Assembly (NCBI GenBank): GCA_964016885.1 | Contig: OZ024740.1 | Span: forward strand, 375,906,001-375,970,000 | DNA from: Eledone cirrhosa | Taxonomy: Eukaryota | Length of the DNA: 64,000 bases | Reading direction: 5' to 3' | In this document: positions 6,983 to 57,620 of the stretch, in pieces | Position numbering within the stretch: the first letter of the stretch is position 1 | Layout of the letters: every line of letters begins with the position of its first letter | Program-made: the position numbers and the translations under genes | The notes under the pieces: generated by a model | The model's database searches: none | Told to the model about the DNA's origin: nothing | The model's input: the letters and a program-made list of their open reading frames with translations, nothing else

Positions 6983-7244
<262 letters not shown>

Positions 7245-15117: not shown

Positions 15118-18100
15118 TGCGACCTACGTAGGGAATCGTATTATCGTGAGCTCCGCAAAGGTTTGTTGATTTCAGTTGTTTCAAATTGCCAGTTATGGAA
15201 AATCTTTGTTGTTAAGTGTTTATAAGTTCACATATATTGCTTTCTGAAAAGGACACCTAAAATATTGAGGCCTTGAGCCCAAATTTAAACTTTTTAATTA
15301 TCAAACAAAATATTTCTTTGAAAAAAAACATGGACGTCAAATTTACTGTTTTTAACAGGCCAACACACCCCTCCTCCACCATCATCACCACCAACACCAA
15401 CAACATTCTAAGCCATGCTACGGTTACCAACACAATGTCAAAAAGAACAATGAACACCACTAATACCACAACCACCACCACAGCGACAACAGAAACCCCC
15501 AAAAAATAAATTATTATCTCGTGACATCGAAATGGATTCACCCAGAATCGACTCTTCCACGCCGAATACCACTGACACCACCACCACCTCCACCACAACT
15601 GAAACTAAAAACAACAATAACAAAAACAGCAACAACAAGAATGAGAATAAAAGCAACAACATCAACACCACCGCAAAACAAAATGTGTCGTTTGCCAAAG
15701 CAGCGAAGAAAAGGGAAACAATCGAGGTAAGCCAGTGTGAATTAAATGAAGCCAAACGAATGGTAAAAAAAGATGGGTACATCGTCACCCCCCCCCCACA
15801 CACACCTAATACAATGGAGCATCGGCGCCTATTAACCGTGTCATATCGGACGATAAACACAAAATAACGCCGAGTGGAACGGGCATCCGAGTCCCAAATA
15901 CAAAAGGCTTTGGGACATGTGTGGGTGAAAAGACCCTCATCAGACGTGGGCAGAAATATGGAACTGTGGACGTGTTTTTTGGAACACCACAGGAAGCCAG
16001 AGCGCACGCCATGTCCCCATTAAGAAGTGACGACTTCCCACTCGTCCCAATCTATTGTGGTGAGAGACTCGGAAGAGCAAGGTGACCCACGTTCCACCGG
16101 CCATCGAAATTCCCTGGCTAATGGCTGCCTTCCTCGACGGCATCGAGGCCAACACAAAAATAATCGAAGTAACAAAAGAAAATCACCTGAACTGGCCCGG
16201 ATCTGGTATGGAGCTCCTGATCGAAGGGGACCAAAAAACATTGAGGAAATTCCAGAGGTGATAGACCTCACTGACGTCAGCCACCTCACCGTAATCGTTG
16301 AGGGTAGGAGGCCTATGTATGTCGTTTGTGGTGAAGGAACCCACCTAAAGGCTTTCTGCCCTTAGGCTAAAAAGTTGAGGCCATCTCTCTTACCTACCCC
16401 AGTGACTCAACCATCAACACTACCAGCAGAAGAAATGGCAGAAACAACTGTAGCAGCAACAACAAAAGCAACTGTAGCAGCAACAACATAGCAATAGTAA
16501 CAAAGCCAACACCACCACCAACCACCACGCGAGAACTAGCACCAGCGCCTCCACCTTCCACCACGCCATAACCCAAACCAACGCCTCTGGAGGATTTGCC
16601 ACTCCCCAACCTATCGAAACTGGAGACAGATTGTGACAACGAGGCGTGTGAAACTGTATAAGGAAAAAATAAAAAAATAAAAAGAACCCAAAAAAGAAAG
16701 AAAATCCTCTTCCTTCACCCTCCAAAAACAAAATACATGGGGAAACAAATAAACTAACAAACAAAAAAATTAGGACAGCTATGCCACCATCCATACCAGC
16801 ATCACAAACCCCATCACCATCATTAACCACAACACCATCATCACCAACACCACAAAAGTCACCAAAAAGCGAAACAGAAGCAAACCCACAGCAAACGCCA
16901 AAAGAAAACAACCAAAACGATACACACTACACAGCATTAAATTTGAACAACAACCAATTATTACACTACATGCATCACAACACCAGCATCACAGAAAAAG
17001 ACTAATACAACACCCCATAAATTCACACCACCTCCACACATACAAATCACTCGCATCACACAGAAAACGTACACGACACTAAAACAAAAATGCCCCAAGC
17101 GCATCGGATACATCCGACACTCTCCAGGAGGATTTATAAGGACAAGCTTCCGGAGGAGGCCACAAACAGTGAGAAGGATGGAAAAACATTCCCCCTACGA
17201 AAAGTGAGATAAGTGGTCGTTCCCATCTTTTTCCACTCCTTTTCAACATGACCTCACTCAGAATAGGCAGCATAAATGCACGTGGCTTGGGGTCGTCATG
17301 GAAGCAGGGTCTCCTGCTCAACCCCTCAGGTCACTAAAAATAGATGTGGTAGCTATCAGCGAGACAAGAATCTCCGTAGCATGGGCCTTCGCACCGATCT
17401 TCGGCGCCGACGATGTGTACGCATCTCCCAGCCATTCTGGATTGGCGGGAGGAGTTGCTGTGATTTTTCGGAGAGGTTTGAATCTCGCCATACGGGCCAT
17501 CTTTCTGGACCCAGAAGGTAAGTTGGTGTTGCTGTACGTGACCAGCGGAGACGGGCAAGCTTTCAGTCTAGTGGCCGTCTACGCCCCGACAGAAGCAGGG
17601 CGACCTGATTTCTTCCGGCGTCTGGAGACCTTTCTTGGAACGTCCCGCTCTTTAGTGTTAGTGGGCGACTGGAACGGGATCAAAGATGCATGTTGGTATT
17701 GTGTGGGATTAGAGGATAGGGGAGGAGGGTGCAAGAGTCTCACTAACCTGCTCAGGCATTTTGAACTGTCTGACAGGTACCGATTGGATTTCCCGAATGT
17801 GCCAATGTGGACATGGACAAACCGCATCGGGTCATGCAGATCATATCTAGATCGAGTATTTCGTAGGGAAATAGATAGGTCTAGCATAGGCTGTTCACAA
17901 TTCAAGATAGTCAGCTACAATTCAAGATAGTCAGATGTTTTGGAAGCGACGCGCTCCCATGATCAGACGATCCATCTACTGTCAACACCCGTTGCGTGGA
18001 AGACTGGGCATGCCATGGCTGATAATGCGCAAACATGCTCTGAGGCTGAGACATCTCTGATCCTTCCTTGGCGGTGAACATGCTTTGTCGCCGTCCGCCA

Positions 18101-19164: not shown

Positions 19165-19179
19165 ATTATTATTATTATT

Positions 19180-21858: not shown

Positions 21859-24800
21859 GGCCGCACATGTGTGAAGACAGACAAGTCTGCGAGGGAAAAG
21901 GTCCGTAGTTTTAAGCTGTTTTAAAGTGTCATTAACGAAACTTAAGGTACACATCTTGATTTAAAGAGAGGGATACCTCTCAATATTCGGGCTTTAAGCC
22001 CGAATATTCAGATTTATTTTTTAAAAACTTCGAAAAAAATCGCTTCCCCTCCAAAAGAAAATTATGGAAATTTTCGACCTTGAAACGGTAAACAACGTTC
22101 AGGTCAAAAGTTTAAAGGCAGCCACTGCAGATTTCACCACGACTACGACGGCTACAGTCATGCCTGTCATCCACTCGACTGAATGTGAAGGCAAAACTAA
22201 AAAGCTACCATTACAACCTTCTGCCATAGCAGCAGTATCATCTGAAAACGACATCACCACCACCGCCACCACCACCACCACCACAACAACAACTCAGAGC
22301 AATAACGACAATAACACCGATAGCTTCAATGCAAACAAGGATGGCGGTGGCAACAGCAAGAATGACAACAACAACAATAAGAGCATCAGAAACAGCACAT
22401 TTGCTGCAGCAGCAGCAATAACAAAGCGCTTATTGAATATTGATATTGATATTAGCAATAAAGACGAACAGTTGGCCAAAGCGTGGAGGCTAATTAAACG
22501 GGAGAAGTCCTGGGCAAACCTGACCATCCCGGACGAGGCAACAGCGGCCATGCAAAGGAGGACGGTGCTCTTTCGATGTATTTTGGTGCAGACACGAAAA
22601 GTGGAACTTGCGAGTCAAGCAGAGGTAGAGGCTGCTTTGGAGTACATCGGAAGTAACATAGAGTACAAAGCAAGGGGCAAACAGTTCGGTACCATCTCGG
22701 TACTGTTCAAAACCGAGGCCCTCGCTATTAAGCACACGGTGACCCCCTGCAGAACGGAACGCATTATCATGCATCCGTCCTATATGGGTAAAGGGACAGT
22801 GAAGGTACGCATTCCCAGCATCCCACCAGGAATGAACATATGGTGGCTGCTGAGATGCGTAATCGAGGAGGGGACAGACACCACCCTCTGGACATCAAAA
22901 GGACAGAGAGAGAGGACTGGTCCGGAATGGATTTGGAGATTCTTCTCCAAATGAAACCGGAAGATATGAATAACATCCCAGATTTTTCCCGCCTGCAGGA
23001 TGGGACAACAATCCAACTAATGATTGACGGAAGAAGGCCACGCTGCTTCGTTTGCGGGGAAGCAACGCATCTTCAAGCCTTCTGCCCTCAGCGCAAAAAT
23101 GCAGGGGGTCGCAAACCTCCTTGTTGCCAACGCCAGTGTCAGCACCGAAAGCTGTACCACCACCACCACCAAAAACAACATCAACAAAAACACGGACACC
23201 AACACTAAAAGCAACCGGATCACCATCAACACCAAAACCAATCCAAGGAGAAAACGAGGAAAGCTCTCCCACTCCCCCCCCCCCCAATTATACACATAGA
23301 CAAAAAAAAAAATAAACGCACACACAGACACAGAGACACTCACAGACACAGACCCTTTGTCTTCCAGCAGCGAAGATGAACGAAAACCCAAAAGTGCAAA
23401 AAAAAAACAGAGAAAACTCACAAAAAAAAAAGCCCCAACAAAACAAAAAAACACACACAACAAAAAATACAGACACCACTAACGCAAACACTTCCCCAAT
23501 AACATGAGCACCATCAGCAACATCGACACCACCTCCACAATCCCCGAAACGCAAACAACCTAAACAAACACAAGTACAAATAAACACACAAATACCTGAA
23601 ATTGCAGACACCACACCTACAACAAACATAGACATACCCGAAACAACACCACCAAAATCATCGCCACCACCTTCACCAAAACGAAAACAAATAAAACCAC
23701 ACCAACAAAATGTTAAAAACTTCGTGCTTGTCAGAAGGGCCAATGGTAAACTGATGGCCCTCTTAGCGCGAAGCGAGGACGTTCAAACAGAGGGGGAGAT
23801 TTTTGAAATGAGCACATTTTGCGTGCCAGAATATTTGCTTCTGGTCCGAACGTCACTCTATTCCTTCAAAGAAATTCGAGAGAGCTTTCCTCAAGACGTG
23901 GGAAACCCGAATGTGAAACCCACATCAAGACTTTTAAAGGGCTTCCCAAAAGAAAACCCACCAACCATGGAGGTCGTACCACCCGACCTTCACAAGACCC
24001 GGGAGGTAAGTAAACCTTCCCTCTCTCTCTCTTAGCTTACTAATATGGCCATATTAAGAGTAGAAAGTTTAAATGTTCGCGGCCTGGGTCCACCCTGGAA
24101 GCAGGGTCGCCTGCTCAACGACCTCGGGTCGCTGGGAATGGATGTGATTGCCGTAAGCGAGACCATAATTTCCGACACGCGCGCACTAGCCCCCATTTTC
24201 GACGACTATCAGATCTTTGCATGTGTTAGCAGGCCGGGAATGGGGGCGGGGTGGCAGTGCTGTTTAGGAAAGGACTGGATCTCGAGGTAAGGTCGATCTC
24301 CCGGGACCCGGACGGTAAGTTGGTGGTCGTGGATGTGAGCAGTAGCGAAGGTGGGGCCTTTAGACTGCTGGCCGTCTATGCTCCTACAGGGGCCGGATGA
24401 TCTGACTTCTTTAGGCGCCTGGAGACCTTTCTGGGTACGTCTCGCCCTTTACTGTTAGTGTGGGACTGGAATGGCATCTTAGACGCACGCTGGGATTGTG
24501 TGGGAGTAGCCGATAGGAGCTGGGGGTGCAAAAGCCTCAAGCACCTACTCAGCCAGTTCCAACTGTCTGACAGGTATCGACTAGATTTCCCCAATGTGCC
24601 AGTATGGACATGGACCAACCGAATGGGGTCATCTAGATCGTATATAGACAGAATCTTCATTAGGAAAATAGATAGAAATAGTGTGGGCTGTCCACTTTTT
24701 AAAACGGTCGCCTATTCCGATCACAAATTTGTGATCTGTACGGTCGACCTAAATAAAACGCGTAGGTTAGGACCGGGTTACTGGAAGCTGAACATGTCAT

Positions 24801-27745: not shown

Positions 27746-27796
27746 ATTATTATTATTATTATTATTATTATTGTTATTATTATTATTGTTATTATT

Positions 27797-31666: not shown

Positions 31667-31667
31667 A

Positions 31668-31707
<40 letters not shown>

Positions 31708-32460: not shown

Positions 32461-32462
32461 TG

Positions 32463-32506
<44 letters not shown>

Positions 32507-32515
32507 TTATTTTAT

Positions 32516-32704: not shown

Positions 32705-32727
32705 TTATTATTATTTTATTATTATTA

Positions 32728-32792: not shown

Positions 32793-35700
32793 GGCGACCT
32801 ACGTAGTAAATCGTATTATCGTGAGCTCCGCAAAGGTTTGTTATTTTCAGTTGTTTAACATTGCCATTATTGGAAAATGTTTATTGTTAACTGTATATAA
32901 GTGCACATACATTGTTTTCTGAAAGGACACTCAAAAAGATTGGGGCCTTGAGCCCAAAAATTAAACTTTTATAATTATCAAACAAAAAAAAAATTCTTTG
33001 AAAAATCATGGCCGACTCACAGCTGAACCCAGTAGCTGAGAGCCTTCCTTACAAACTAACACCTCGCACCGACACCACCATTGTAAATATTACTACGTTT
33101 GCCAACACTAAAAATATAAGCAGTAGCAATATTTAATTTTGTCTCAGGCAGACATTCATTTCCCGCCATTACCAATGACTGCAGGTGTTGAAGCAGCCAC
33201 CCCCACCACCACCACAACGACAACAGAAACAAAAGAAAAAAATAAATTATCTCGTGATATCGACACGAATTCAGCCAAAATGAACTCTTCCACACCGAAC
33301 ACCACTGACGGCACCACAACTGAAACTAAAATTAACAATAAGAAAAATAACGATAACAACAACAGCAACAAAGAAATTAAGAAAACAACCCAGTCTTTTG
33401 CCAGAGTAGCAAATACGTGCGAAGCATTCCAGGTAACTCAGGAGGAATTAGAAGAAGCAAAAAAAATGGTAAAGAAAGATGGGTACAGGGTCAGACCCCC
33501 TCTCCCGAACACACACACACACACACACACCTAATAAAATGGAGCATCGGCGCTTATGCACCGTGTCTTATCGGACGATTAACATAAAATCGCGCCGAGT
33601 GAAACGGGCATCCGAGTCCCAAATCCAAAAGGCTTTGGGACATGTGTGGTCCAGAAAAACCCACATCAAACGTGGGCAGAAATATGGAACCGTGGACGTG
33701 TTCTTTGAAACACCACAGGAGGCCAGAGAACAATCCATGGCTCCAGTAAGGAGTGACGACTTCACACTCGTCCCAAGCTATTGTGGCTAGAGACTCGTAA
33801 CCATCAGGGTGACCCACGTTCCACCGGCCATCAAAATTCCCTGGCTAATGGCTGCCGTCCTCGCCGGCATCGAAGCCAACACCAAGATAATCGAAATAGC
33901 GAAAGAAAAGCAGGAAAACTGGTCCGGATCTGGGATGGAGCTCCTGATCCAAGCGGACCAAAAACAGCATTGAAGAGATCCCAGAGGTAATAGACCTCAC
34001 TGACGGCAGCTACCTCACCGTAATCGTCGAGGGCAGAAGGCCCAGGTGTGTCGTTTGTGGTGAAGGAACCTACCTAAATGCTTTCTTCCCTCAGGATAAA
34101 AGGTTGAGGCCACCTCTCTTACCCACCCCAGTGACTCAACCATCAACACCACCAGCAGCAGAAATGGCAGCTACAACAGAAGCAACTGTAACAGCAACAA
34201 CCTCAGCAATAGTAGCAAAACCAACACCACCACCACCCAACGCGCCAGAACTAGCACCATCGCCTACACCATTCACCACGCCACAACCAAAACCAACGCC
34301 CGTGGAGGAGTTTCCACTCCCCGACCTATCGCAACTGGAGACAGATTGTGACGACGAGGAGTGGGAAACGGTATCAGATAAAAAGAAAAAAAGAAAAAGA
34401 AACCAAAAAAGCAAAACATCCCCTTCTTTCCCCCTCCAAAAACAAAATACAGAGGGAAACAAATAAATTATCAAACAAAAAAGTAAGGACAGCTATGCCA
34501 CCATCCACACCAGCATCACAAACCCATCACCACAAACACCAACGCCATCACCATCATTAACCCCAACACCACCATCACCAACACCACAAAAGTCACCAAA
34601 AAGCGAAACAGAAACAAACCCTCAATAAACGAAAACAAAACAAATCGACCAAAACGATACACACTACACAGCATTAAATTTGAACAACAGCCAATTATTA
34701 CACTACATCCAACACAACACCAGCATCACAGAAAAAGACTACACAACATCCAAAAGTTCACACCACCTCCACGCATAAAAATATTTCGCATCACACAGAA
34801 AACGTACACGGCACTAAAACAAAAATTCCCCAAAGACATCGGAGACTTCCGACAAACATTCTCCAGGAGGATTTATAAGAACATGCTTCCGGAGGAGGCC
34901 ACAAGCAGTGAAAAGGATGGACTTACCCTCCTTCCTCTACGTGAAGTAGGGTAAGTGGTCTTTCCCATCTTTTCCGCTCCATTTCAACATGACCTCACTC
35001 AGAATAGGCAGCATAAATGCGCGTGGCTTGGGGTTGTCATGGAAGCAGGGCCACCTGCTCAACGACCTCACTAAACATAGATATAGTGGCCATCAGCGAG
35101 ACCAGAATGTCCGAAGCACGGGCCTTCGAACCGATCTTCGGCGGCTACGATGTGTACGCATCTCCCACCCGTCTTGGATCGGGGGGGGGATGTCGCTTTT
35201 TCGGAGAGGTTTGGATATCGCCATACGGGCAATCTACCTGGACCCGGAGGGTAAGTTGGTGGTGCTGGACGTAACCAGCGGAGACGGGCAAGCTTTCAGG
35301 CTAGTGGCTGTCTATGCCCAGACAGCCGCAGGGCGGCCTGATTTCTTCCGGCCTCTGGAGACCTTTCTTGGAACGTCCCGCTCTTTAGTGTTAGTGGGCG
35401 ACTGGAACGGGATCTTAGATGCACGCTGGGACTGTGTTGGATTAGCAGATAGGGGGGAGGGTGCAAGAGCCTCACCAACCTGCTCAGGCGTTTATGAACT
35501 GTCTGACAGGTACCGATTGGATTTCCAGAATGTGCCAATGTGGACTTGGACAAATCGCATAGGGTCATCCAGATCATATCTAGATAGAGTATTTTGTAGG
35601 GAAATAGATAGGTCTAGCATAGGCTGTCCACAATTCAAGATAGTCAGCTACACGGACCACAAATTCGTGATCTGTGTGCTTGACGTAGATAGGCTTCATA

Positions 35701-38506
35701 GACGAAGACCCGGCTACTGGAAGCTAAACGCGTCCTTACCAGCGCGCAAGGCCTACAGAGACCTGATTAGCAAACTAGTTAAGCGGGCGTTGACGGGGGC
35801 CAGCTTCAACAACAAGTGGTGGTTTGCTCTGAAAAGAGCGATTAGAATAGAGTCCATTAGGTTCAGTAAGGCTTTAGCAATAGAGAAAAATAGAGCAGAG
35901 GTAGAACTAATTAGAAAATGAGACGAGGCGCTTAGCAAAGGCATCGCGACCGACGTATTTGCAGCGAAATTGGCCCTTGACCAATTCTTCAATGCAAAGC
36001 ACGAAGGCTGCGTTGTCAGAGCTAGGGTGCGTGCTCTAAGACACGAGGGGACAAAAGCCGTTCAATGGGCCCGAGTGGCGGAGGCGCGTCGTGGCAACAA
36101 AAACCACGATCCGGTCTTTGGTGGACCACGACGGGCGCATGCTACTCGATCCCGGGCAAATGTGTGAAGCTTTTCAACGACATTTCGCTCAACTGTTCGG
36201 GGGCAGCGGCGGGCCGGATCGATGGATGGACTTTATTGTCTAACTCGATGGGCTGCCGCGGCTCTCGGCCACTGAGGTGGAGTGTTGCGCAAAGCCGATA
36301 ACAGCCGCTGAAGTACGGGAGGCAATGACTGGCTGCACAAACGGTAAATCGCCTGGTTTGGATGGTCTGCCCTATGAACTTAACGTACAAATGCCAGACT
36401 TGTTTGGAGCCTCTTGGCGGACGTCTACTGCAACTGGCAACAGAACGGGAGTATTCCCAGCTCTGATAATTTTAGTTCCATAATTCTGCTAAACACAGAG
36501 TTCAAGATTTTCGCCAAGGTGCTAGCAAAGAGGTTGGCGCTTGTCGTTGGTGGTCTGCGCCATTCCCGACAGATCCATCCACGACAACCTCCACCTCATG
36601 CGATACATCGTAGAGAGTGTAGCTAGGGAAGCTGGCACGGGTGGGTCTTTGATAAATTTAGATCAGTCGAAATCTTTCGATAGGGTCGACCATCGTTACC
36701 TAGCGCTAGTCCTGAGGGCGGCTGGCTTTGGACCCGTCTTCAGAGGCTGGATCGCTGTCATGCAGAGCAACATCTGCTCTGTGGTGAGAGTGAACGGTCC
36801 CCTTTCGGAACCGTTCAACACCATGCGTTCGGTCCGTCAAGGATGTGCCCTCTCGTCCCTCTTGTACGGATTGACTCTCGAGCCATTACTGCATGAACTG
36901 GAGACGGTGAGGGGGATCCCGCGCGAACTAGGATGCTGAAGATCCGTGTCAGCATATGCGGACGATGTCACCGTAGTGGTGTCGAACAGCCAATCACATC
37001 GAGGCGATCGGCACTACATTAAGAGAATACGAAGCGGTGACAGGAGCAATGATCAACCAGAAAAAGTCAGTGGGCCTGCAGCTCGGCACCTGGAGAGGCA
37101 GGTCTATGCCGTCCAAAAGCGTCGTCGGGCGCTGGACGGACGGACCGGTTAAATTGCTAGGGGTCTGGTTCGGTCCGGAAATCCAGACGGAAAAAACTGG
37201 GTCGTGGTGACGAGCAGGGTGGCTTCTCTCACCCAGAAATGGGCGGAGAGGAAGCTATCCCTGAAAGGTCGAGCGTATGTGGTTAACGCGTACATCGCGT
37301 ACATCATCTACTACCGCCTGACCCTCGTACCTTGCCCTAAGCCCCTCCTGACTGCGCTGGAGCGTTTGCTCTTTCGCTTTTTGTGGAAGGGACGCGCTAC
37401 GATGGTCTGGCGGTCCATCTGCTGTCAACACCCGCTACGTGAATGGCTGGGCATGCCGTGGCTGATGATGCGCAGACACGCGTTCAGGCTACGACGTCTC
37501 CACCTCTTCCTCGAGGGTGCTCAGGTGTGGTCGCCGTTTGCTACAGGCGTCTTTCCTTGACGGAGCTAGTCCTGGATCAAGCGAAGACCGAGAGGGAGCG
37601 CTTGGTGACTGGAATGTCTTCAGGCGCTCACAGCCCTCGACCAATCGGGCAATGTGATCGGTGGAAACTCCACCTTGGCGTTCTATAGAGGATTAGTGGA
37701 GGGGAAGAGCGACCACGTACTTTGGGGAACTCTAGGCGTCGACGAAAATCAACTAGCCACTCTCTTCGGAAGAACTTTCGGGCCGGGGCCTATGGACAAC
37801 TTCCAGAAATCCCTGGCCTGGCAGTGCTACCGAGGAGCTTTGCCATTTCGGGATAAACTCTACAGGCATGGAGGTGCCGTCAGCTGGGCATGTCCGAGAT
37901 GCGCGCAGGGCGACGAAACCGTCCTGCACGCACTCGTCCAGTGTCCGAGCATTGCTGACTTGTGGGTTTATGTCGAACACCTGCTGTCGCGTGTAGGAGG
38001 GATCCAGCTATCAGCTGAGTCCATCGTGAGGATTGCCCCACCCTCTTCCTTTAGCCGGGAAGGGCAGGCAGTTTTTATCTGTCTGGTGGCCATGGCGAAA
38101 GAGATAGTATGGTGGAATCGTTTGAAAGGGCTGAAGACGAGCACTTCCCTCTTCGGTGATGCCCTGATTAACTTTTCAAATTTCATTTGAAAAGGAAAAT
38201 CAGGGTAGAGAGGTAAGTGCTCTCTTTCCAGCATTTTGTTGAAAGATGGGTGACAGAGGCAAGAATGTGCCTGTAAAATGAATGTAGAAAACTGGGTCAG
38301 GGTCACTGTGGCTTTTTAATGGGCGATCTCCACGAATGTCCCTCGGAAGTCTCGCCCTATTGGGGAATTTTTCATTGTTATTTTTTTGTTACATCCTCTG
38401 TTTTTGTTTTTTTACACGCAGAAATGCCCATTTGTACCGCCCTGTATTGTCCTGTACTGTCCTTAATGTCTATTTTATGTAAACCATTGTGGTTAATAAA
38501 GAAATC
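32793..38506 (+). mobile_element. Tx1/L1-clade LINE family A, copy A2 (full length, degenerate)
   Basis: Collinear with A3. ORF1 from about 33008, ORF2 from 34989. Multiple frameshifts and small deletions. Confidence 0.93.
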
Positions 38507-38521: not shown

Positions 38522-41500
38522 GGTCTAAGCGGACGTATTTTGCTCGCTCACAGTAAGTCGCTTTATTTGCCTGTTACAATTATTTGTTGTTAAATATTTC
38601 TTGTTGTGTAAGGGATATAAGCCCTTAGACTTTGTCCCGTGAAGGGGAAAGTATAATATTTGGGTCTTTTGGGCCAAATATTTGAACTTTTTTTTACATG
38701 TTAAAAAAATTTACGAAGAAAAAAAAACTTGGCTGAGCCACGCCCCTCAGCGATATGTCGGCTGTCGTGCGACAACGACGTAAAAGTTGAGAGGAGCGCT
38801 ACAGCGAAATTAACACACATTGATAACACAAACACCACCACAAACAAGGTAAACAAAGACACCAATGATACCAATAAGAACACTAATTTTGAAAAAAATG
38901 ACAGAAACAGCGACAACGAAAATACAGATAACAAAAAAAAATAACAAATACAACAACAATATCAACACACCTAACATGAAAACGAATAGCGACAACACCA
39001 ACAGCAACAATACCAACTGCACCGAGAACAACGGTGGCAACAAAGACAACAATGATAACAGCGACAGTGCTAACAACAACACCAACAAGAACAACGACAA
39101 CAAAACCTCCAACGAAAACAAAAAGAACACTTTCGCTGCGGCAGCAGCAAAAAAGAGGCCAATTCATCAACATGGACCTCGCAAACAAAGATGAAAAGTT
39201 GGCCCAGGCATGGAAGCTCATCAAGCAAGAGCAAACTTGGGCCAACTTAACTGTCCCGGTAGAAGCTATTGAGGCAGTGGAGCGCAAAACGGTGCATTAT
39301 AGATGTATCTCAGCACAAACCAAAAGGGCAGCTTTAATCCCACAAGAAGATGTCGAAGTCGCGCTGAGGTGCATCAGAGAAGACACCCAGTACATAGAGA
39401 GGGGCAGACAGTACGGCACCATTTCGGTGTTGTTCAAGTCAGGAGCCCTCGCTATGAAACACGCTATGACTTCTTGCAAAACCGGCAAGGTGATAATGTA
39501 CCCCCTCCCACATGGGAAAATGAACGGCCCGTCTCCACATTCCCAGAATCCCACCAGTACTTGACATGTGGTGACTTCTGGTATGTGTGATTGTGGAGGG
39601 GACGGATACAGTCCCTATAGAAGTGACCAGAACGGCCAGAGAGGACTGGTCCGGGGTTGACCTGGAGATCCTTCTCCAGATCTGGCCCGAGAATGTGAAG
39701 TCAATCCCAGACCGCATCCGCCTTCAGAATGGGACAGTCATTCACATTATGACCGGAGGCAAAAGGCCGCAGTGTTTTGTTTGTGGGGAAAATAAATCAT
39801 TTGCGAGCCTTCTGCCCTCAACTGCTGAAAGAGGCAAGGGGTCGAAAGGCTCCACTACTGCCGACGCCGGGGCGAGGACCACAACCAACACCAGCACCGG
39901 CAAAACCACCAACAACAACACAAATAGAAAGACCACCACCAACATTGACCACCCAGGGGGGAAACGAGGAAAGCTGTCAAAGTCCCCCTCCTCCCCAAAA
40001 AACCGTAACCTACATACAGACAGACACACTTACAGACACAGACCCCTCATATACCAGTAGTGAAAATGAGGGAAATCAAAAATCCCCCAAAATACAAAAA
40101 AGGAAACACAAAAAGAAAAAATAACTCAACAAAGCACCCACAATAAAAAACGCAGACACCACCCACGCAAACATCTCTCCAATAACACCAACATCAACAC
40201 CACCATCACCATCACCAGAATCCCCCAAACGCAAACAACCGAAACAGACGCAAGAACAAATATAGACACAAACATCTGAAACCACAGACACCGCACTCAC
40301 AACAAACACAGATACAACCGAAACAACACCACCAAAACCATCACCTCCACAGCCACGCAAACAAATAAAATCACACCAACAAAACATACAAAACTTCGTG
40401 CTCGTCAGGAGGGCCAACAAGGAAATGATGGCTCTCGTAGCACGAAGTGAAAATATACAAAAAGAGGGGGACATTTTTAAATCGAGCACATTTCGCGTGC
40501 CGGAAGATTTGGTACTGGTGCGAATGCCGCTCGACATATTCAAAGAAATACGAGACAGCTTTCCTCGGGACATGGGAACCCCGAATGTAAAACCCACATC
40601 AAGACTTTTAAAGGGGTTCCCAAAAGAAATCCCACTAACTATGGAGGTCGAACAACCCGACCTTCATAAGAGCCCGGAAGGTAAGTAAACCTTCCTCTCT
40701 ATCTGTTTAACCTGCCAACATGGCCGTATTAAGAGTAGGATGTTTAAATGTTCGAGGCCTGGGATCGTCCTGGAAGCAGGGTCACCTGCTCAACGACCTC
40801 AGGTCTATAGAAATGGATGTAATTGCAGTCAGCGAGACCAGGATTTCCGACACGCGCGCACTAGCCCCCATTTTCGACGACTATCAGATCTTTGCATCTG
40901 TTAGCCGGCCGGGAATGGGAGGCGGGTGGCAGTGCTGTTTAGGAAAGGCCTGGATCTCGAGGTAAGGTCGATCTTCCGGGACCCGGACGGGAAGTTGGTG
41001 GTCCTGGACGTGAACAATAATGAAGGTGGTGCCTTTCGACTGGTGGCCGTCTATGCTCCTACTGGGGAAGGACGGCCGGACTTCTTTAGACATATGGAAG
41101 CCTTTCTGCGTACGTCTCGCCCTTTACTGTTAGCTGGGGAATGGAACGGCATCTTAGACGAACGCTGGGACAGTGTGGGAGTATCCGATAGGAGCGGGGG
41201 GTGCAAAATCCTCAAGTACCTGATCAGCCAGTTCCAACGATCTGACGGGTACCGACTAGATTTCCCTAATGCGCCAGTGTGGACCTGGGCTAACCGCATA
41301 GTGTCATCTAGATCGTATATAGACAGGATATTCATTAGGAAAATTTGACAGAAATAGTGTAAGCTGTCCACGTTTTGAAACGGTCGCCTATGCAGATCAC
41401 AAGTTTGTGATCTGTATGGTCGACCTAGATAAGACGCGTAGGTTAGGACCTGGTTACTCGAAGCTAAACATGTCATTTCCAGCACGTAAGGCTTACAGGG

Positions 41501-44462: not shown

Positions 44463-44671
44463 GGCGACCTACGTAGGAAATCGTATTATCGTGAGCTCCG
44501 CAAAGGTTTGTTATTTCCGTTTGTTTAAAAATTGCCATTTATGGAAAATTTTATTGTAAACTGTTTATAAGCACACATACATTGTTTTCCGAAAAGGACA
44601 CCCAAAAAGATTGGGGCCTTGTGCCCAAAATTTTAACTTTTATTATTATCCAAAAATTTCTTTGAAAAAAA

Positions 44672-46663
44672 ATGGCTAATTCCCCTCTGCACGAAGCAGC
44701 TGAAAGCCTTCCTCACAAAATAACACCTCACACCGACACCACCATTGTAAATGTTACTACGTTTGCCAACACAAAAAAAAATATAAGCAGTAGCAATATT
44801 TTAAATTTGTCTCAGGCAGACATTCATTTCCCGCCATTACCAATGACTGCAGGTGTTAAACCCTCCACCACCACCACCACCGCAACAACCACCACCACCA
44901 CCACCACCGCGACAACAGAAACAAAAGAAGAAAAAAATAAATTAACTCGTGACGTCGAAATGAAATCAAGCAAAATGGACTCTTCCCCACCAAAGACGAC
45001 TGACGTCACAACCACCACAACTGAAAATAAAATTAATATTAACGATAGCAACAACAACAACAATGACATTATAAAACCGACCCTCAGTTTCGCCATCGTA
45101 GCAAAACAATTCGAAGCGTTCACGGTAACCCAAGAAGATTTAGAAAATGCCAAACAAATGGTAAAGAAAGATGGGTACAGGGTCAGCCTCACCCCCCCCC
45201 CCCCACCTAATAAAATGGAGCATCGGCGCCTGTGCACCGTGTCGGATAGAACAATAAATGTAAAATCGCGCCGAGTGGAACGGGCATCCGAGTCCCAAAT
45301 CCAAAAAGCTTTGGGACATGTGTGGGCAAGAAAAACCCACATCAGACGTGGGCAAAAGTATGGAACCGTGGATGTGTTCTTTGAAACACCAGAGGAGGCT
45401 AGAGAACACTCCATGGCCCCATTAAAAAGTGACGACCTCACACTCGTCCCAAGCTATTGTGGCCAGAGACTCGTAAAGATCAGGGTGACCCACGTTCCAC
45501 CGGCCATCGAAATTCCCTGGCTAATAGCGGCTGTCCTCACCGGCATCGAAGCCAACACGAAAATAATAGCAGTAGCAAAAGAAAAGCAGGAAAACTGGTC
45601 CGGATCTGGGATGGAGCTCCTGATCCAAGCGGACCAAAAAAGCATTGAGGAGATCCCAGAGGTAATAGACCTCACTGACGGCAGCCACCTCACGGTAATT
45701 GTCGAGGGCAGAAGACCTAGGTGTGTCGTTTGTGGTGAAGGAACCCACCTAAGGGCTTTCTGCCCTCAGGCTAAAAGGTTGAGGCCACCTCTCCTACCCA
45801 CCCCAGTGACAAAACCATCAACACCACCAGTAGCAGAGATGGTAGCAACAACTGTAGCAGCAACAACAGAAGCAACTATAACAGCAACAACCCCAGCAAC
45901 AGTAGCAAAACCAACACCACTACCACCACCAGCAAAACCAACACCACCACCACCCAACGCTTCAGAACTAGCACCAGCGCCTACACCATCCACCACACCA
46001 CAACCAAAACTAACGGCTGTGGAGGATTTTCCACTCCCCGGCCTATCACAACTGGAGACAGATTGTGACGACGAGGAGTGGGAAACGATATCCGGAAAAA
46101 AAAAAAGAAACCAAAAAAGAAAAATTTCTCTTCCTTCCCCCTCCAAAAACAAAATACAGAGGGAAACAAATAAACTAAGAAACAAAAAAGTTAGGACAGA
46201 TATGCCACCATCCACACCAGCATCACCAACCCCATCAACCCAAACACCAACACCATCACCATCATTATCCCCAGCACCACCATCACCTACACCACAAAAG
46301 TCACCAAAATTCGAAACAGAAACAAACCCACAACAAACGCAAACAAAACAAAACAACCAAAACGATACACACTACACAGCATTAAATTTGAACAACAAGC
46401 AATTATTACACTACATCCAACACAACACCAGCATCACAGAAAAAGACTACACAACAACCCCAAAATTCACACCACCTCCACACATACAAATCACTCGCAT
46501 CACACAGAAAACGTACATGACACTAAAACAAAAATTCCCCAAAGACATCGGAGACTTCCGACAAGCACTCTCCAGGAGGATTTATAAGGACATCCTTCCT
46601 GAGGAGGCCACAAGCAGTGAAAAGGATGGAAAAGCCGTCCTTCCCCTACGAGAAGTAAGGTAA
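44672..46663 (+). CDS. ORF1p: putative RRM-like region + CCHC zinc knuckle, T/P-rich linkers, conserved C-terminal domain
   Basis: Uninterrupted 663 aa with IVEGRRPRCVVCGEGTHLRAFC (CX2CX4HX4C), located upstream of ORF2. The RRM assignment is inference. Confidence 0.9.
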   Translation: MANSPLHEAAESLPHKITPHTDTTIVNVTTFANTKKNISSSNILNLSQADIHFPPLPMTAGVKPSTTTTTATTTTTTTTATTETKEEKNKLTRDVEMKSSKMDSSPPKTTDVTTTTTENKININDSNNNNNDIIKPTLSFAIVAKQFEAFTVTQEDLENAKQMVKKDGYRVSLTPPPPPNKMEHRRLCTVSDRTINVKSRRVERASESQIQKALGHVWARKTHIRRGQKYGTVDVFFETPEEAREHSMAPLKSDDLTLVPSYCGQRLVKIRVTHVPPAIEIPWLIAAVLTGIEANTKIIAVAKEKQENWSGSGMELLIQADQKSIEEIPEVIDLTDGSHLTVIVEGRRPRCVVCGEGTHLRAFCPQAKRLRPPLLPTPVTKPSTPPVAEMVATTVAATTEATITATTPATVAKPTPLPPPAKPTPPPPNASELAPAPTPSTTPQPKLTAVEDFPLPGLSQLETDCDDEEWETISGKKKRNQKRKISLPSPSKNKIQRETNKLRNKKVRTDMPPSTPASPTPSTQTPTPSPSLSPAPPSPTPQKSPKFETETNPQQTQTKQNNQNDTHYTALNLNNKQLLHYIQHNTSITEKDYTTTPKFTPPPHIQITRITQKTYMTLKQKFPKDIGDFRQALSRRIYKDILPEEATSSEKDGKAVLPLREVR

Positions 46664-46697
46664 GTGGTCTTTCCCATCTTTTCCACTCCTTTTCAAC

Positions 46698-49600
46698 ATG
46701 ACCTCACTCAGAATAGGCAGCATAAATGCGCGTGGCTTGGGGTCGTCATGGAAGCAGGGCCACCTGCTCAACGACCTCAGGTCACTAAACATAGATGTAG
46801 TGGCCATCAGCGAGACCAGAATCTCCGAAGCACAAGCTTTCGCACCGATCTTCGGCGGCTACGATGTGTACGCATCTCCCAGCCGTCCGGGATCGGGGGG
46901 AGGAGTTGCTGTGCTTTTTCGGAGAGGTTTGGATCTTGCCATACGGGCCATCTTCCTGGACCCAGAAGGTAAGTTGGTGGTGCTGGACGTGACCAGCGGA
47001 GACGGGCAAGCTTTCAGGTTAGTGGCCGTCTATGCCCCGACAGGAGCAGGGCGGCCTGATTTCTTCCGGCGTCTGGAGACCTTTCTTGGAACGTCCCGCT
47101 CTTTAGTGTTAGTGGGCGACTGGAACGGGATCTTAGATGCACGCTGGGATTGTGTGGGATTAGTGGATAGGGAAGGAGGGTGCAAGAGTCTCACCAACCT
47201 GCTCAGACGTTTTGAACTGTCTGACAGGTACCGAATGGATTTCCCGAATGTACCAATGTGGACTTGGACAAATCGCATAGGGTCATCCAGATCATATCTA
47301 GATAGAGTATTTTGTAGGGAAATAGATAGGTCTAGCATAGGCTGTCCACAATTCAAGATAGTCAGCTACACGGACCACAAATTCGTGATCTGTGTGCTTG
47401 ACTTAGATAGGCTTCATAGACAAGGACCCGGCTACTGGAAGCTAAACGCGTCCTTACCAGCGCGCAAGGCCTACAGAGACCGGATTAGCGAACTAGTTAA
47501 GCGGGCGTTGACGGGGGCCATCGTCAACAACAAGTGGTGGTTTGCTCTGGAAAGAGCAATTAGAATAGAGTTCATTAGGTTTAGTAAGACTTTAGCAATA
47601 GAGATAAATAGAGCAGAGGGAGAATTAGTTAGAAAATTAGATGAGGCGCTTAGCAAAGGCATCGAGACCGACGTACTTGCGGCGAAATTGGCCCTTGACC
47701 AATTCTTCAATGCAAAGCACGAAGGCTGCGTTGTCAGAGCTAGGGTGCGTGCTCTCAGACACAAGGGGACGAAAGCCGTTGAATGGGCCCGAGTGGCGGA
47801 GGCGCGTCGTGGCAACAAAGCCACGATCCGGTCTTTGGTGGACCACGACGGGCGCATGCTACTCGATCCCGGGCAAATGTGTGAAGCTTTTCAGCGACAC
47901 TTCGCTCAACTGTTCGAGGGCAGTGGCGGGCCGGATCGAGGGATGGACTTTAGTGTCTACCTCGACGGACTGCCGCGGCTTTCGGCCACTGAGGCGGAGT
48001 GTTGCGAAAAGCCGATAACAACCGCTGAAGTACGGGATGCAATGACTAGTTGCACAAGGGGCAAATCGCCTGGTTTGGATGGTCTGCCCTATGAACTTTA
48101 CGTACAAATGCCAAACTTGTTCGGAGGCCTCTTGGCGGACGTCTACTGCAACTGGCAACAGAACGGGAGAATTCCCAGCTCTGTGAGCCGAGCAGCGGTG
48201 GCGCTGCTGAGAAAGGATCCGAACAAGGGGGATAACATAGATAATTTTAGGCCCATAACTCTGCTAAACACAGAGTTCAAGATTTTGGCCAAGGTGCTAG
48301 CAAAGAGGTTGGCGCTTGTCGTTGGTGGTCTGGTGGGAGAGGCACAGACATGCGCCATTCCCGACAGATCCATCCACGACAACCTCCACCTCATGCGATA
48401 CATCGTAGAGAGGGTAGCTAGGGAACCTGGCACGGGTGGGTCTTTGATCAATTTAGATCAGTCGAAAGCCTTCGATAGGGTCGACCATCGTTACCTAGCG
48501 CTAGTCCTGAGGGCGGCTGGCTTTGGGCCCGTCTTCAGAGGCTGGATCGCTGCCATGCACAGCGACATCTGCTCTGTAGTGAGAGTGAACGGTCACCTTT
48601 CGGAACCGTTCAACATCATGCGCTCGGTCCGCCAAGGATGTCCCCTCTCGTCCCTATTGTACGTATTGACTCTCGAGCCATTACTGCACAAACTGGAGAC
48701 GTTGAGGGGGGTCCCGCGCGAACTAGGATTCGGAAGATCCGTGTCAGCATATGCCGACGATGTCACCGTAGTGGTGTCGAACGCCAAACACATCGAGGCG
48801 ATCGGCACTACACTAAGAGAATACGAAGCGGTGACAGGAGCAATGATCAACCAGGAAAAGTCAGTGGGCCTGCAGCTCGGCACCTGGAGAGGCAGGTCCA
48901 TGCCGTCCAACAGCGTCGTCGGGCGCTGGACGGACGGACCGGTTAAATTGCTAGGGGTCTGGTTCGGTCCAGACCTCCAGACGGACAAAAACTGGGACGA
49001 GGTGACGAGCAGGGTGGCTTCTCTCACCCAGAAATGGGCCGAGAGGAAGCTATCCCTAAAAGGTCGAGCGGAGGTGGCGAATGCGTACATCGCATCCGTC
49101 ATCTACTACCGCCTGACCGTCGTACCTTGTCCTAAGCCCCGCCTGACTGCGCTGGAGCGTTTGCTCTTTCGCTTCTTGTGGAAGGGACGCGCTCCGATGG
49201 TCAGGCGGTCCATCTGCTGTCAACACCCGCTACGTGGAGGGCTGGGCATGCCGTGGCTGATGATGCGCAGACACGCGCTCAGGCTACCACATCTCCACCT
49301 CTTCCTCGACGGTGATCAGGTGTGGTCGCCGTTTGCAAGACACGTTGTTCCCCAGCTCGTCTCCTTGACGGAGCTGCAGTCCTGGGTCAAGCGAAGACCG
49401 AGAGGGAGCGCTTGGAGACTGGAATGTCTTCAGGCGCTCACAGCCCTCGACCAATCGGGCAATGTGATCGGTGGAAACTCCACCTTGGCGTTCTATAGGG
49501 GATTAGTGGAGGGGAAGAGCGACCACGTACTTGGAGAAACTCTAGGCGTCGACGAAAATCAACTAGCCAATCTCTTCGGAAGGACTTTCGGGCCGGGGCC

Positions 49601-50117
49601 TATGGACAACTTCCAGAAATCCCTGGCCTGGCAGTGCTACCGAGGAGCTTTGCCAGTTCGGGATAAACTCTACAGGCATGGAGGTGCCGTCAGCTGGGCA
49701 TGTCCGAGATGCGCGCAGGGCGACGAAACCGTCCTGCACGCACTCGTCCAGTGTCCGAGCATTGCTGACTTGTGGGTTTATGTCGAACACCTGCTGTCAC
49801 GTGTAGGACCTATCCAGCTATCAGCTGGGTCCATCGTGAGGATTGCCCCGCCCCCTTCCTTTAGCCTGGAAGGGCAGGCAGTTTTTATCTGTCTGGTGGC
49901 CATGGCGAAAGAGATAGTATGGTGGACACGTTTGAAAGGGCTGAAGACGAGCACTTACCTCTTCGGTGATGCCCTGATTAACTTTTTCAAATTTCATTTG
50001 AAAAGGAAAATCAGGGTAGAGAGGGAAGTGCTCTCTTCCCAGCATTTTGTTGAAAGATGGGTGAGAGAAGCAAGTATGGCCCGAATGAATGGGCCTTCTC
50101 TGAGTATGTGTCTGTAA
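46698..50117 (+). CDS. ORF2p: APE endonuclease - reverse transcriptase - CCHC
   Basis: INARG, SET, VYAP, GDWN, YLDR, TDH, GYWKLN, KSPGLDG, NFRPITLLN, LDQSKAFDRVDH, RQGCPLS, YADD, CPRCAQGDETVLHALVQC. Confidence 0.97.
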   Translation: MTSLRIGSINARGLGSSWKQGHLLNDLRSLNIDVVAISETRISEAQAFAPIFGGYDVYASPSRPGSGGGVAVLFRRGLDLAIRAIFLDPEGKLVVLDVTSGDGQAFRLVAVYAPTGAGRPDFFRRLETFLGTSRSLVLVGDWNGILDARWDCVGLVDREGGCKSLTNLLRRFELSDRYRMDFPNVPMWTWTNRIGSSRSYLDRVFCREIDRSSIGCPQFKIVSYTDHKFVICVLDLDRLHRQGPGYWKLNASLPARKAYRDRISELVKRALTGAIVNNKWWFALERAIRIEFIRFSKTLAIEINRAEGELVRKLDEALSKGIETDVLAAKLALDQFFNAKHEGCVVRARVRALRHKGTKAVEWARVAEARRGNKATIRSLVDHDGRMLLDPGQMCEAFQRHFAQLFEGSGGPDRGMDFSVYLDGLPRLSATEAECCEKPITTAEVRDAMTSCTRGKSPGLDGLPYELYVQMPNLFGGLLADVYCNWQQNGRIPSSVSRAAVALLRKDPNKGDNIDNFRPITLLNTEFKILAKVLAKRLALVVGGLVGEAQTCAIPDRSIHDNLHLMRYIVERVAREPGTGGSLINLDQSKAFDRVDHRYLALVLRAAGFGPVFRGWIAAMHSDICSVVRVNGHLSEPFNIMRSVRQGCPLSSLLYVLTLEPLLHKLETLRGVPRELGFGRSVSAYADDVTVVVSNAKHIEAIGTTLREYEAVTGAMINQEKSVGLQLGTWRGRSMPSNSVVGRWTDGPVKLLGVWFGPDLQTDKNWDEVTSRVASLTQKWAERKLSLKGRAEVANAYIASVIYYRLTVVPCPKPRLTALERLLFRFLWKGRAPMVRRSICCQHPLRGGLGMPWLMMRRHALRLPHLHLFLDGDQVWSPFARHVVPQLVSLTELQSWVKRRPRGSAWRLECLQALTALDQSGNVIGGNSTLAFYRGLVEGKSDHVLGETLGVDENQLANLFGRTFGPGPMDNFQKSLAWQCYRGALPVRDKLYRHGGAVSWACPRCAQGDETVLHALVQCPSIADLWVYVEHLLSRVGPIQLSAGSIVRIAPPPSFSLEGQAVFICLVAMAKEIVWWTRLKGLKTSTYLFGDALINFFKFHLKRKIRVEREVLSSQHFVERWVREASMARMNGPSLSMCL

Positions 50118-50365
50118 ATTAAAGGTGGAAAACTGGGAGAGGGCACTTGCCCTGGTGGTCAGGGCCACTGTGGTCTTTTAATGGGCTTTCTCCACAAATG
50201 TCCCTTGGAAGTCTCCCCCCTATTGGGGAATTTTTCTTTGTTATTTTATTTCAACCTCTGTTTTTTCACACGCAGAAATGCCCATTTGTACCGTCCTGTA
50301 TTGTCCTGTACTGTCCTTAATGTCTACTTTATGTGAACCCTTGTGGTTAATAAAGAAAACATTAC

Positions 50366-55498: not shown

Positions 55499-57620
55499 GC
55501 TACCTCAGGATGTCGTCAAGTATAACTTTACTACGTAAAGTTTGTTTATGTTCACTTGTTTGCATAAACTTCATTGTTAAAATATTAGATAGAAAATGTT
55601 AATTGGGCGGCAGGCATTTCATTTTACGCCTACAAGTGTGTAAAAATGGCGCTGAGACACTCCTCCTCTCCTATCTAGTTGTCAGGTGACAGCGATTCGC
55701 ATACGAGTATAAAGCTCGACAAAGACGTCACCACCTCCACCACAACAAACATGAGTACCAATAGTGACAGAATCACAACCACGAGCACCTCCAACAACAA
55801 CTACATAAAAGCACCTCATCAAAAAGAAGCATTGAGATAAATAAGAATAGTGACAGCATTGACAAAAACAGCAGCAACAACGCCAACAGGAACAGCAAAA
55901 TAAACGTAGACATATAAACCAAGTATGGTCACAGTTTACATTTGGAGAGAGATCACCCACCTGCGGAATTCGCCCCCGTATCCCAGATCCCAAAATGCAT
56001 ATCCTCTGAGACAAGGAATCAGTCTTTGTCGACGTACTTTTCAAAATCCCAGGTGAAATCAGACGTTAATTATTCACTGTGGAGCGAAGAGCTACATCTG
56101 CTGCCGAAGTATTGTAGCCAAAGTTTAGTGAAGATAAGAGTGAACCACACAATAGCTATTTCGTGGCTAGTGGAAGCTATCCTTATAGATGTTTTAATAG
56201 CAAGCAAATACTAGGCACGAAGAAAATTAAACTGAAAGACTTGTCAGGATCAATGATGGAACTACTGATCCAAACTAATCAGGAAATTATTGAACTCATA
56301 CTTGAGATAATAGACTATGTGAACGGCACTCACCTCCCCGTGACCGTTGACGGTAGATGGCCAAGATGCCACAAGTATGGTTCAAAAATGCACCTGAAGG
56401 TATTCTGCCTTCAATAAACATGCCCCTCTCCGAACATGGATTATAGCCTTGGGAGGAGTGGCACATTGACAATAACAAAAACATAAAGAAACAATAGAGA
56501 ATTGCTCCATGAAAAAAATCCTTCGAAACATCACAAACATAGGACACAACGCCAACACCAACTACCATCAACACCACTAGACCCTCATATGGAACAACAA
56601 AAACAACAAAAACGCAAGCCAAACGAAAACACAATCACCACACATTAAACAGCTATGAGAACAAACAATCAGAAATTAATGAAAACACTACAATTGCAGA
56701 AAATTATTGCATCACCCCGAATACTATTACACTACCCACCATACATCAAATCATATATATCACACATGAAACATACACTAAATTAAAAGGAGAATGTCTC
56801 AATGCAATTGGGGACATTCGGGCCAGGTTATCCAAGCAGATATATTTCTTTGTGGTGGAGATCATCATCCCTCGCTCTACAGGAACAGAATCACCTTTTC
56901 TCACTTTTCCTTCTCACTATCTAACATGGCCTTATTCAGAATAAGCAATTGACGTGCTTATGGGTATATTTTTCTCGATGTATTTCTCAAAACAATGCAC
57001 GAAGGCTGCGTTAACAAAGCTAGGGCGTGTGTGGGCAGAGCGGAAGAATTCCCAGTTCTATGAGCCGCAGAGAGATGGCACTCGTGAGAAAGACTCGAAC
57101 AAGGGGGAATAAATATGCAGATTTTACGTCCATAATTCTGCAAAATGCAGAGTTAAATATTTGAACAAGGTATACACAACGAAGTCAGCCCTTGTCGCCA
57201 GTGGTGTGGTACGGAGTGCAAAAATGCACCATCCCGAAGAGGTTCATGCGCAACAACCTTTGCCCTATGCAACATATAATGAAACTAGAACGTGTAGGGG
57301 TCTAATTCATGTATACAAATCGAAAGCTTTCGATAGGGTGGACCATTGCTACGGTTTCGGTCCCGTTTGCAGAGATTAGCTCACAGCGAAATCTGCTGCG
57401 TGGTTAGTGTAAATATTTACCTGGACAGAGAGATCAGTTAATATTTTAAGGGTCTAGTTTGATCCAAAGTTCCAGATGGATAGAAACCAGGCCCTGGTAA
57501 CGAGTAGACTAGCATGTCTTACACAGAAATGGGCCAAACAGAATCTAAGCCTTAAAGCATGGACCGAGCTGGCAAGCACATACACCATATCCGTTATCTA
57601 CTAGCAGTTCAGTTCTGTCT
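55499..57620 (+). mobile_element. Old, heavily deleted Tx1-clade relic (copy D)
   Basis: GTHLPVTVDGRWPRCHKYGSKMHLKVFC (ORF1 knuckle), HEGCV.KAR, SKAFDRVDH..GFGPV, LTQKWA..NLSLK. Confidence 0.75.

Follow-up and report, generated by a model that had tools for sequence, protein, structure and literature searches.

Introduction

Microsatellite-targeting long interspersed elements (LINEs) of the Tx1 clade, such as Kibi, Koshi and the crocodilian Tx1 elements, carry two open reading frames (ORFs), ORF1 and ORF2, the latter with an APE endonuclease, a reverse transcriptase and a zinc domain, and Kibi and Koshi are described as inserting in (TC)n and (TTC)n (PMC4494074). In Octopus vulgaris, 13 recently active L1-Tx1 families are reported (PMC13282606). 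The elements dealt with here share this make-up and lie in a window of 64,000 nucleotides (nt) from Eledone cirrhosa (contig OZ024740.1, positions 375,906,001 to 375,970,000, forward strand), the window being the whole stretch of DNA analysed. It holds six plus-strand L1/Tx1-type LINE copies, which make up a family A (A1–A3) and a family B (B1–B3), together with a seventh, decayed copy (D, 55.6–57.7 kb). Like Kibi and Koshi, the copies are bounded by simple repeats, here (ATT)n, so that their target would be (ATT)n and would differ from (TC)n and (TTC)n. Such tracts are found at the ends of A1–A3 and B1–B3, the 5' edge of B2 not being a clean ATT tract; as the tails of both families are themselves (ATT)n, a choice of (ATT)n as target is not separable from nesting.

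The feature under study is a 5' splice-site (donor) consensus at the junction of the two ORFs. Mammalian LINE-1 is similar in its short spacer between the ORF1 stop and the ORF2 AUG (63 nt in human, against 34 nt in family A; PMC5972666) and in having conserved donors that need not serve splicing (PMC5860796). The donors of the human L1 SpIREs lie in the 5' untranslated region (UTR) and leave intron-less copies (PMC5860796), whereas here the donor overlaps the ORF1 stop. A strong donor also ends the structural gene of EVD, a Ty1/Copia element of Arabidopsis, in which U1 binding after gag makes a gag-only mRNA possible and keeps the full-length RNA from terminating early (PMC5580714). EVD, however, is a long terminal repeat (LTR) element with demonstrated splicing (PMC5580714), while the present element is a LINE known from DNA sequence alone. 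No description of a donor motif at a LINE ORF1 stop was found in the open-licence literature searched.

A donor motif conserved at the end of ORF1

The most complete account can be given for copy A3, whose junction is laid out below together with those of the other copies.

44463..50361, plus strand: LINE copy A3 (L1/Tx1 type), ORF1 and ORF2 open, flanked by (ATT)n tracts
44672..46663, plus strand: ORF1 of A3, first ATG to TAA, with a central domain bearing a CCHC knuckle, a Pro/Thr-rich linker and a C-terminal domain, ending in LREVR-stop
46658..46665, plus strand: donor-consensus motif AG/GTAAGT, which takes in the final Arg codon of ORF1 together with its stop
46668..46694, plus strand: pyrimidine tract in the inter-ORF spacer of A3, beginning 8 nt after the donor and ending 17 nt before the proposed acceptor
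46695..46700, plus strand: ORF2 start AAC-ATG, within the proposed intron; AA(C/T)ATG in all seven copies
46698..50117, plus strand: ORF2 of A3, with APE-type endonuclease, reverse transcriptase and zf-RVT
34950..35002, plus strand: A2 junction, donor intact, 52-nt geometry as in A3
17208..17261, plus strand: A1 junction, donor gone through synonymous AGG>AGA
24005..24063, plus strand: B1 junction, donor intact but put in phase 0 by an upstream 1-nt deletion, with a TAG at 30 nt
40680..40738, plus strand: B2 junction, donor in phase 1 (…PEGK-stop), predicted hairpin of 7 base pairs (bp) with the stop in the loop
51978..52034, plus strand: B3 junction, donor gone (ATAAGA), TAG at 28 nt
56880..56945, plus strand: copy D junction, pyrimidine tract and AAC-ATG, no GTAAG

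The initial annotation had noticed a perfect G/GTAAGT at the ORF1 stop, and this was borne out in four of the seven copies, the GGTAAGT starting at 24005 (B1), 34950 (A2), 40680 (B2) and 46659 (A3); in A3 the stop itself is the TAA at 46661–46663 that closes …LREVR. The pyrimidine tract which it placed after the donor is likewise present, as is the mutation of the donor in A1 (17208) and B3 (51978), both of which read GATAAG, with a G>A change at +1.

The positional conservation of GGTAAGT exceeds the background. Families A and B are only some 40–45% identical in the ORF1 tail, and the motif is read differently in each, as AGG TAA GT in family A, with the stop inside it, and as GGT AAG TAA in B2, so that the ORF1 frame lies one base apart. 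The 7-mer is identical in A2, A3, B1 and B2, where seven of the eight motif columns are invariant, compared with 27 of the 89 columns around them, and it is the sole run of at least 7 bases shared by these four copies between 45661 and the ORF2 start; the chance of such an invariant run anywhere in that stretch was estimated from the column counts at about 0.02. Moreover, its distance from the ORF2 ATG is 38–39 nt in all four intact copies, and 37–39 nt in the six copies measured. The window as a whole contains 14 GGTAAGT sites against 7.2 expected (2 of 100 shuffles), an excess which is inflated because eight of the 14 are two homologous sites in element copies.

Public contigs of four of the six sequencing runs listed, the kind of run being unrecorded, were also aligned to an 801-base stretch that takes in the A3 junction. 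In run X6 (organism C) the motif is kept in two contigs of 110 nt, with 10 and 5 differences that all fall at or before 46647, and a contig of run X4 is changed at 46650, 46652, 46655, 46658, 46689 and 46694, with none listed at 46660–46665. One contig of run X1 has GAG/GTAAGA ahead of the same tract, and run X5 gives no cover before 46704. An attempt to judge the presence of the donor in relatives from the ends of their ORF1 proteins was rejected, because Gly-Lys aligns as well with a D-G-K that is internal in family A.

As judged from sequence, the elements are L1/Tx1-type LINEs of the ordinary two-gene kind, in which an unexplained donor motif has been conserved where ORF1 stops. ORF2 of A3 matches Pfam Exo_endo_phos, RVT_1 and zf-RVT above cut-off, as well as human L1 endonuclease structures, while the Tx1 link by name comes from one relative, a "Transposon TX1 149 kDa protein" at 31% identity. 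ORF1 is without a Pfam match; its protein (P0001) carries a CCHC knuckle, C-x2-C-x4-H-x4-C, and one of its 359 relatives is named as a CCHC-type protein. The nearest relatives of ORF1 that bear a name are octopod proteins (Octopus sinensis, O. bimaculoides and Argonauta hians), which makes an octopod host likely.

The 52–58 nt cut proposed to fuse ORF1 and ORF2

From the donor the initial annotation had gone on to propose that ORF2 may be expressed as a spliced ORF1-ORF2 fusion, through a very short intron ending inside ORF2.

46709..46711, plus strand: proposed proximal acceptor CAG, in ORF2 codons Leu4-Arg5, rank 7 of 264 AGs

The geometry was correctly described. In A3 the first AG ends at 46711, and removal of 52 nt joins phase 2 to phase 2 in a frame of 1797 amino acids with the junction LPLREVR-IGSINAR, A2 being alike; in B2 the donor is in phase 1 and the first pyrimidine-AG (YAG), at 40738, gives a 58-nt cut that is again in frame. 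The claim of an in-frame fusion in both families holds for A2, A3 and B2 but fails for B1, where a 1-nt deletion puts the donor in phase 0 and so makes the 58-nt cut out of frame, and for B3, where the first YAG, at 28 nt, is in the wrong phase. B1 is out of frame at 55 nt as well, and a TAG of far greater strength, the first YAG in this copy, follows after only 30 nt. The in-frame coincidence in two independent families is not beyond chance, at about 1 in 9.

An inherited intron should keep its phase and position, and the difference between the families in both respects disfavours the short splice. Neither phase nor acceptor was found to be conserved between them: the donor stands in phase 2 in family A, in phase 1 in B2 and in phase 0 in B1, while the A and B acceptors are non-homologous, lying 5 nt apart in ORF2. 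The acceptors are weak, ranking with ad hoc weights 7 of 264 (CAG, A3), 11 of 237 (A2) and 73 of 261 (TAG, B2), and in B2 two further AGs stand just upstream of the 58-nt TAG. The pyrimidine tract sits beside the donor and stops 17 nt short of the AG, no consensus branch site is shared, and the sole candidate branch adenines in common, 36–37 nt after the donor, have surroundings that do not fit the consensus. Nothing usable on the minimum intron size of octopods was found in the literature searched.

The protein that such a cut would yield was also considered. It would lose the ORF2 ATG with its AAC/AAT context, and the earlier caveat that ORF2 keeps its own ATG applies in all seven copies. 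For family A the join is conservative and in this respect speaks for a fusion, with Val-Arg (Ile-Arg in the X4 variant) taking the place of Leu-Arg before IGSIN; RIGSIN of A3 aligns with TILTLN of the human L1 endonuclease. In B2, on the other hand, Ser-Pro-Glu would replace Leu-Arg-Val, that Val corresponding to the Ile of the first strand in the human L1 endonuclease, so that the product would lose the conserved residue of this strand. Stop read-through, as another route to a fusion, was rejected, family A ORF2 being out of frame with ORF1.

Direct traces of the cut were then sought in the contigs. X1, with 7675 contigs, covers the unspliced junction at a summed depth of about 390,000–430,000, a depth which is not a copy number. 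The joint from 46659 to 46712 is absent among the 15 of its 108 joints listed (depth 14.6–49.3, one 35-nt skip included), and a 52-nt loss is absent among the 12 of 14 indels listed. The missing 52-nt skip is moderate negative evidence against the short splice. Among the 40 of 240 variants listed no high-share variant falls at 46710–46711, a point in favour of the fusion. The intron-less retrocopies that had been suggested as a check were sought as far as the material allows, with none among the seven window copies nor among the joints and indels just given, contigs being unable to prove absence. In the six copies of families A and B no internal deletion of at least 25 nt has GT..AG ends, a 57-nt gap in A2 having a GT start and a TA end; the deletions of copy D begin after the ORF2 start and not at the donor position.

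At the protein level, no fused ORF1-ORF2 protein was found among the best 150 of the 359 ORF1 relatives, 4 longer relatives and 34 ORF2 relatives, a negative that is weak because repeats are usually masked in gene models. One candidate, P0023, was rejected as a fusion, being ORF1 alone. In the open-licence literature (titles and abstract openings) neither an ORF1-ORF2 fusion nor an inter-ORF intron in a LINE was found. There is precedent for a fusion outside the LINEs, in the Ogre LTR elements, where a spliced intron joins ORFs. Ogre packages its unspliced RNA in particles and its intron can thereby persist, whereas from a LINE that acts in cis it would disappear.

Taken together, with phase and acceptor unconserved, weak acceptors, the ATG retained and no 52-nt skip listed, expression of ORF2 by the spliced fusion initially proposed is very improbable. 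The same low standing is given to its weaker form, in which an ORF1-ORF2 protein of about 1800 amino acids would be at least a minor product, possibly acting in trans. That no productive short (52–58 nt) splice takes place is, in turn, highly probable.

Probable re-initiation on an unspliced RNA and the donor as a possible U1 site

The reading preferred here, in which we place an intermediate degree of confidence, is that of an unspliced two-gene RNA from which the short stretch is not cut, with ORF2 made by re-initiation at its own AUG and the motif serving as a U1-binding site. The element would be transcribed as one unspliced two-gene RNA; ribosomes would end ORF1 at the stop within the motif, and a fraction of them would restart at the AUG 34 nt on, this being the spacer between stop and ATG in A3. 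U1 small nuclear ribonucleoprotein would bind the motif without productive splicing and would so guard the full-length RNA against early 3' cleavage. The alternative already voiced in the initial annotation, a U1-binding or regulatory signal, thus stands as a candidate, now with a conserved donor-like motif. The U1 role is the step that sets the overall confidence, and the chances for and against it appear evenly balanced.

Several lines agree with this reading. The nucleotides of the motif are kept although the ORF1 frame of the two families lies one base apart, which counts in its favour, and between 3 and 5 AATAAA signals lie upstream of the donor in every copy where the donor is intact. 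The ORF2 ATG stands in all seven copies, and four ORF2 relatives of 39–42% identity have, according to their gene calls, a Met start just ahead of the first strand. In X1 the unspliced junction is abundant. Re-initiation across the 63-nt spacer is the route proposed for LINE-1 ORF2 (PMC5972666), and in the Copia element EVD early termination is described as blocked by a U1 site (PMC5580714). Because its proteins act in cis, human L1 leaves intron-less copies of its spliced RNAs, which for one class amount to about 1.8% of full-length insertions (PMC5860796).

A number of observations weigh on the other side. Family A has no AATAAA between the donor and the 3' UTR, so that the signals to be protected would lie upstream of the donor (the nearest at 327–491 nt), unlike in EVD (PMC5580714). 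The donor has been lost in three copies (A1, B3 and D). The G at +1 is predicted to be paired with a probability of 1.0 in A2, A3, B1 and B2, by which U1 access would be hindered, the donor-like control site in the endonuclease coding sequence being equally paired. The motif of each family can also be attributed to the stop codon, to Arg or Gly-Lys coding and to hairpin pairing, and a conserved donor of human L1 is ascribed to an overlapping RUNX3 site and not to splicing (PMC5860796). As regards the contigs, they show presence and not absence and drop rare variants, the listed part comprising 15 of 108 joints, 40 of 240 variants and 24 of 519 loose ends; the kind of run is unrecorded for all four runs, and X1 may be the source of the window itself. 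It is the upstream position of the family A signals, the hairpin that would hide the site and the loss of the donor in three copies that hold the confidence in the U1 role to a middling level.

A predicted hairpin and a possible lack of U1 function

The pairing just referred to belongs to a hairpin predicted over the junction, and a second occurrence of the motif served as a control for it.

46616..46687, plus strand: predicted RNA hairpin of A3 in which the purine-rich ORF1 tail pairs with the pyrimidine tract, enclosing stop and donor (z −3.97)
46968..46974, plus strand: second perfect GGTAAGT, in endonuclease coding sequence (E-G-K-L), control; also in A1, A2 and B1

Against shuffled sequences the folding z of the junction is −3.97 in A3, −4.84 in A2, −4.87 in B2, −2.50 in B1 and −2.20 in A1, with +0.94 in B3 and +0.76 in D; none of 200 shuffles each folds as well in A2, A3 and B2, and B3 and D are no better than shuffles. 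Of the 72 windows folded in A3 that of the junction ranks second, and of the 69 in B2 it ranks fifth. The predicted shapes differ: family A has a long stem with the pyrimidine tract for its 3' arm and the AUG just 3' of the stem, while family B has a 7-bp stem with the stop in the loop. A stem that takes up the pyrimidine tract would make the tract explicable without splicing. No compensatory pair was found in either junction hairpin by consensus folding of three sequences per family.

In A2 (34921–34958), three adjacent changes create ACTTACCCT, which is perfectly complementary to AGGGTAAGT further downstream, so that the donor would be wholly buried; the three-base change looks like a hairpin-templated mutation.

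This folding bears on a second explanation, in which the motif would have no U1 function and would survive by common descent together with the demands of the stop codon, the terminal Arg or Gly-Lys and the hairpin pairing; the hairpin, for its part, may help termination and re-initiation. This explanation is considered unlikely, though the best of the alternatives. It agrees with the folding of the A2, A3 and B2 junctions above that of shuffles and with the loss of the donor in three of the seven copies, in A1 through a silent change. Moreover, the second GGTAAGT, 309 nt downstream of the junction donor, is kept in four of six copies (A1, A2, A3 and B1) and is predicted to be equally paired, and the ends …DQGK (P0042) and …PEGKS (P0040) of distant ORF1 relatives fit a Gly-Lys motif at the protein level. 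Nevertheless, the constraints named differ between A and B, yet the 7-mer is identical; the hairpins differ between the families too, those of B3 and D are no better than shuffles and compensatory pairs are lacking. The Arg codon CGG, found at 94,932 of 374,996 in depth in X1, frees the third base, yet G+1 is kept in the sole contig in which it can be read (X4).

The motif is also absent from the distant relatives viewed, which again suits a motif without U1 function. A metagenome scan gave 37 distant loci at 21–47% identity, the ORF2 start being viewable in 17 of them (12 by script and 5 by eye), several of which have no clear ORF1. In the 12 scripted loci, GT(A/G)AG within 150 nt upstream of the ORF2 start occurs in two, neither after a G nor at a stop, and none of the five inspected by eye has a donor motif at the ORF1 stop.

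Other observations on relatives were made alongside. In four distant L1-like loci (L002:200-400, L003:600-720, L006:2020-2130 and L027:2500-2610) the ORF2 frame is open far upstream, overlapping the ORF1 end, and no ATG stands right at the endonuclease start, for which a frameshift or an overlapping start is possible. The octopod gene models P0071, P0193, P0037 and P0040 are ORF1 proteins of related LINE families, one of them misnamed as a kinase. No relatives were found in viral and prokaryote contigs, a word search of ORF1 at near lengths gave 0 of 665 candidates, and Rfam has no match in the window, which gives no small nuclear RNA or transfer RNA target.

A possible distant acceptor in the 3' UTR

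A third explanation keeps the donor as a splice site and places its partner at the far end of the element.

50252..50275, plus strand: top acceptor-like site of A3, a U-rich tract and CAG in the 3' UTR, 74 nt before the terminal AATAAA
50349..50354, plus strand: terminal AATAAA of A3, ahead of the (ATT)n tail

Were the donor joined to this acceptor, 3616 nt would be removed in A3, and with them all of ORF2. What remained would be an ORF1-only mRNA, still with its poly(A) signal and tail; ORF1 protein would be made in Copia-like excess, with the unspliced RNA as ORF2 message and template. We regard it as improbable, behind the explanation without U1 function although ahead of the short fusion. 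The 3' UTR CAG is the top AG in A3 (1 of 264, scoring 6.7 against 2.4 for the next) and in A2 (1 of 237, 10.0 against 3.5), again with ad hoc weights; its A2 homologue ends at 38421 (region 38398–38500), and in A1 it is CAC, so that neither the donor nor this AG is present in that copy. However, the 3' UTR is the U-richest part, where any AG scores high, and the 3' part of A1 is the more divergent from A3 (77% against 84%), so that the joint loss may be unlinked. In B1 and B3 there are U-rich 3' UTR TAG sites (ranks 2 and 3 of 264, and 1 and 5 of 240), but the A and B sites are unaligned and B2 has none.

The frame set by the donor downstream of the acceptor runs for 19 residues after the junction codon and then stops. 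All three differences between A2 and A3 in that frame are silent, TGA/TAA included, for which chance was estimated at about 1 in 25, whereas only three of ten are silent between B1 and B3. In X1 no loose end at 46659 was found among the 24 of 519 listed. An RNA without ORF2 would not be copyable in cis, and therefore few genomic traces would be expected of such a splice. HAL1, or half-L1, elements contain ORF1 only and resemble what a copied far-spliced RNA would leave; no ORF1-only copy with the predicted far junction is present in the window. The precedent for this kind of splicing is EVD (PMC5580714).

Other features of the window

The retroelements form a cluster at 15–58 kb of the window, which is AT-rich animal DNA. 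Between 15065 and 55500, at least six LINEs of two families stand head to tail in the same orientation, joined via (ATT)n, as a nested insertion hotspot. In A1 (17897–17937) about 1.8 kb of ORF2 is gone at a 20-nt tandem duplication, and its 3' part is 77% identical to A3 against 84% for the 5' part, so that A1 may be a recombinant.

A different, single-ORF retroelement lies on the minus strand at 27779–31670 and 19162–21624, with a reverse transcriptase, a C-terminal Cys/His motif and a PD..D-type nuclease-like tail, and is ATT-bounded; a 3' fragment of a relative is found at 31852–32511. It resembles the Dong-R4 or Hero types listed for O. vulgaris (PMC13282606), either of which is a candidate label. 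Two long (TA)n tracts enclose a perfect 315-nt inverted repeat (7243–7557 and 7733–8047), which may have arisen through the assembly, as an artefact, or through a fold-back of recent date. A short minus-strand element stands between ATT tracts at 32520–32705, with a similar start at about 50430, and resembles the common octopus short interspersed element (SINE).

Significance for LINE expression

From a single RNA, LINEs produce ORF1 protein in quantity and ORF2 protein sparingly, by a mechanism that is only partly understood. Were the distant splice to be true, this would be a LINE with the Copia strategy of setting the ORF1:ORF2 ratio by splicing, and it could spawn ORF1-only derivatives. 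Should the motif act instead as a U1 site on an unspliced RNA, or have no U1 function, the element would be a two-gene LINE of the ordinary kind, whose conserved junction is a curiosity. Fixed as it is at the end of ORF1 in two families, the donor motif offers a mutable handle on the ORF1:ORF2 ratio, for which A1 provides a natural donor-less control.

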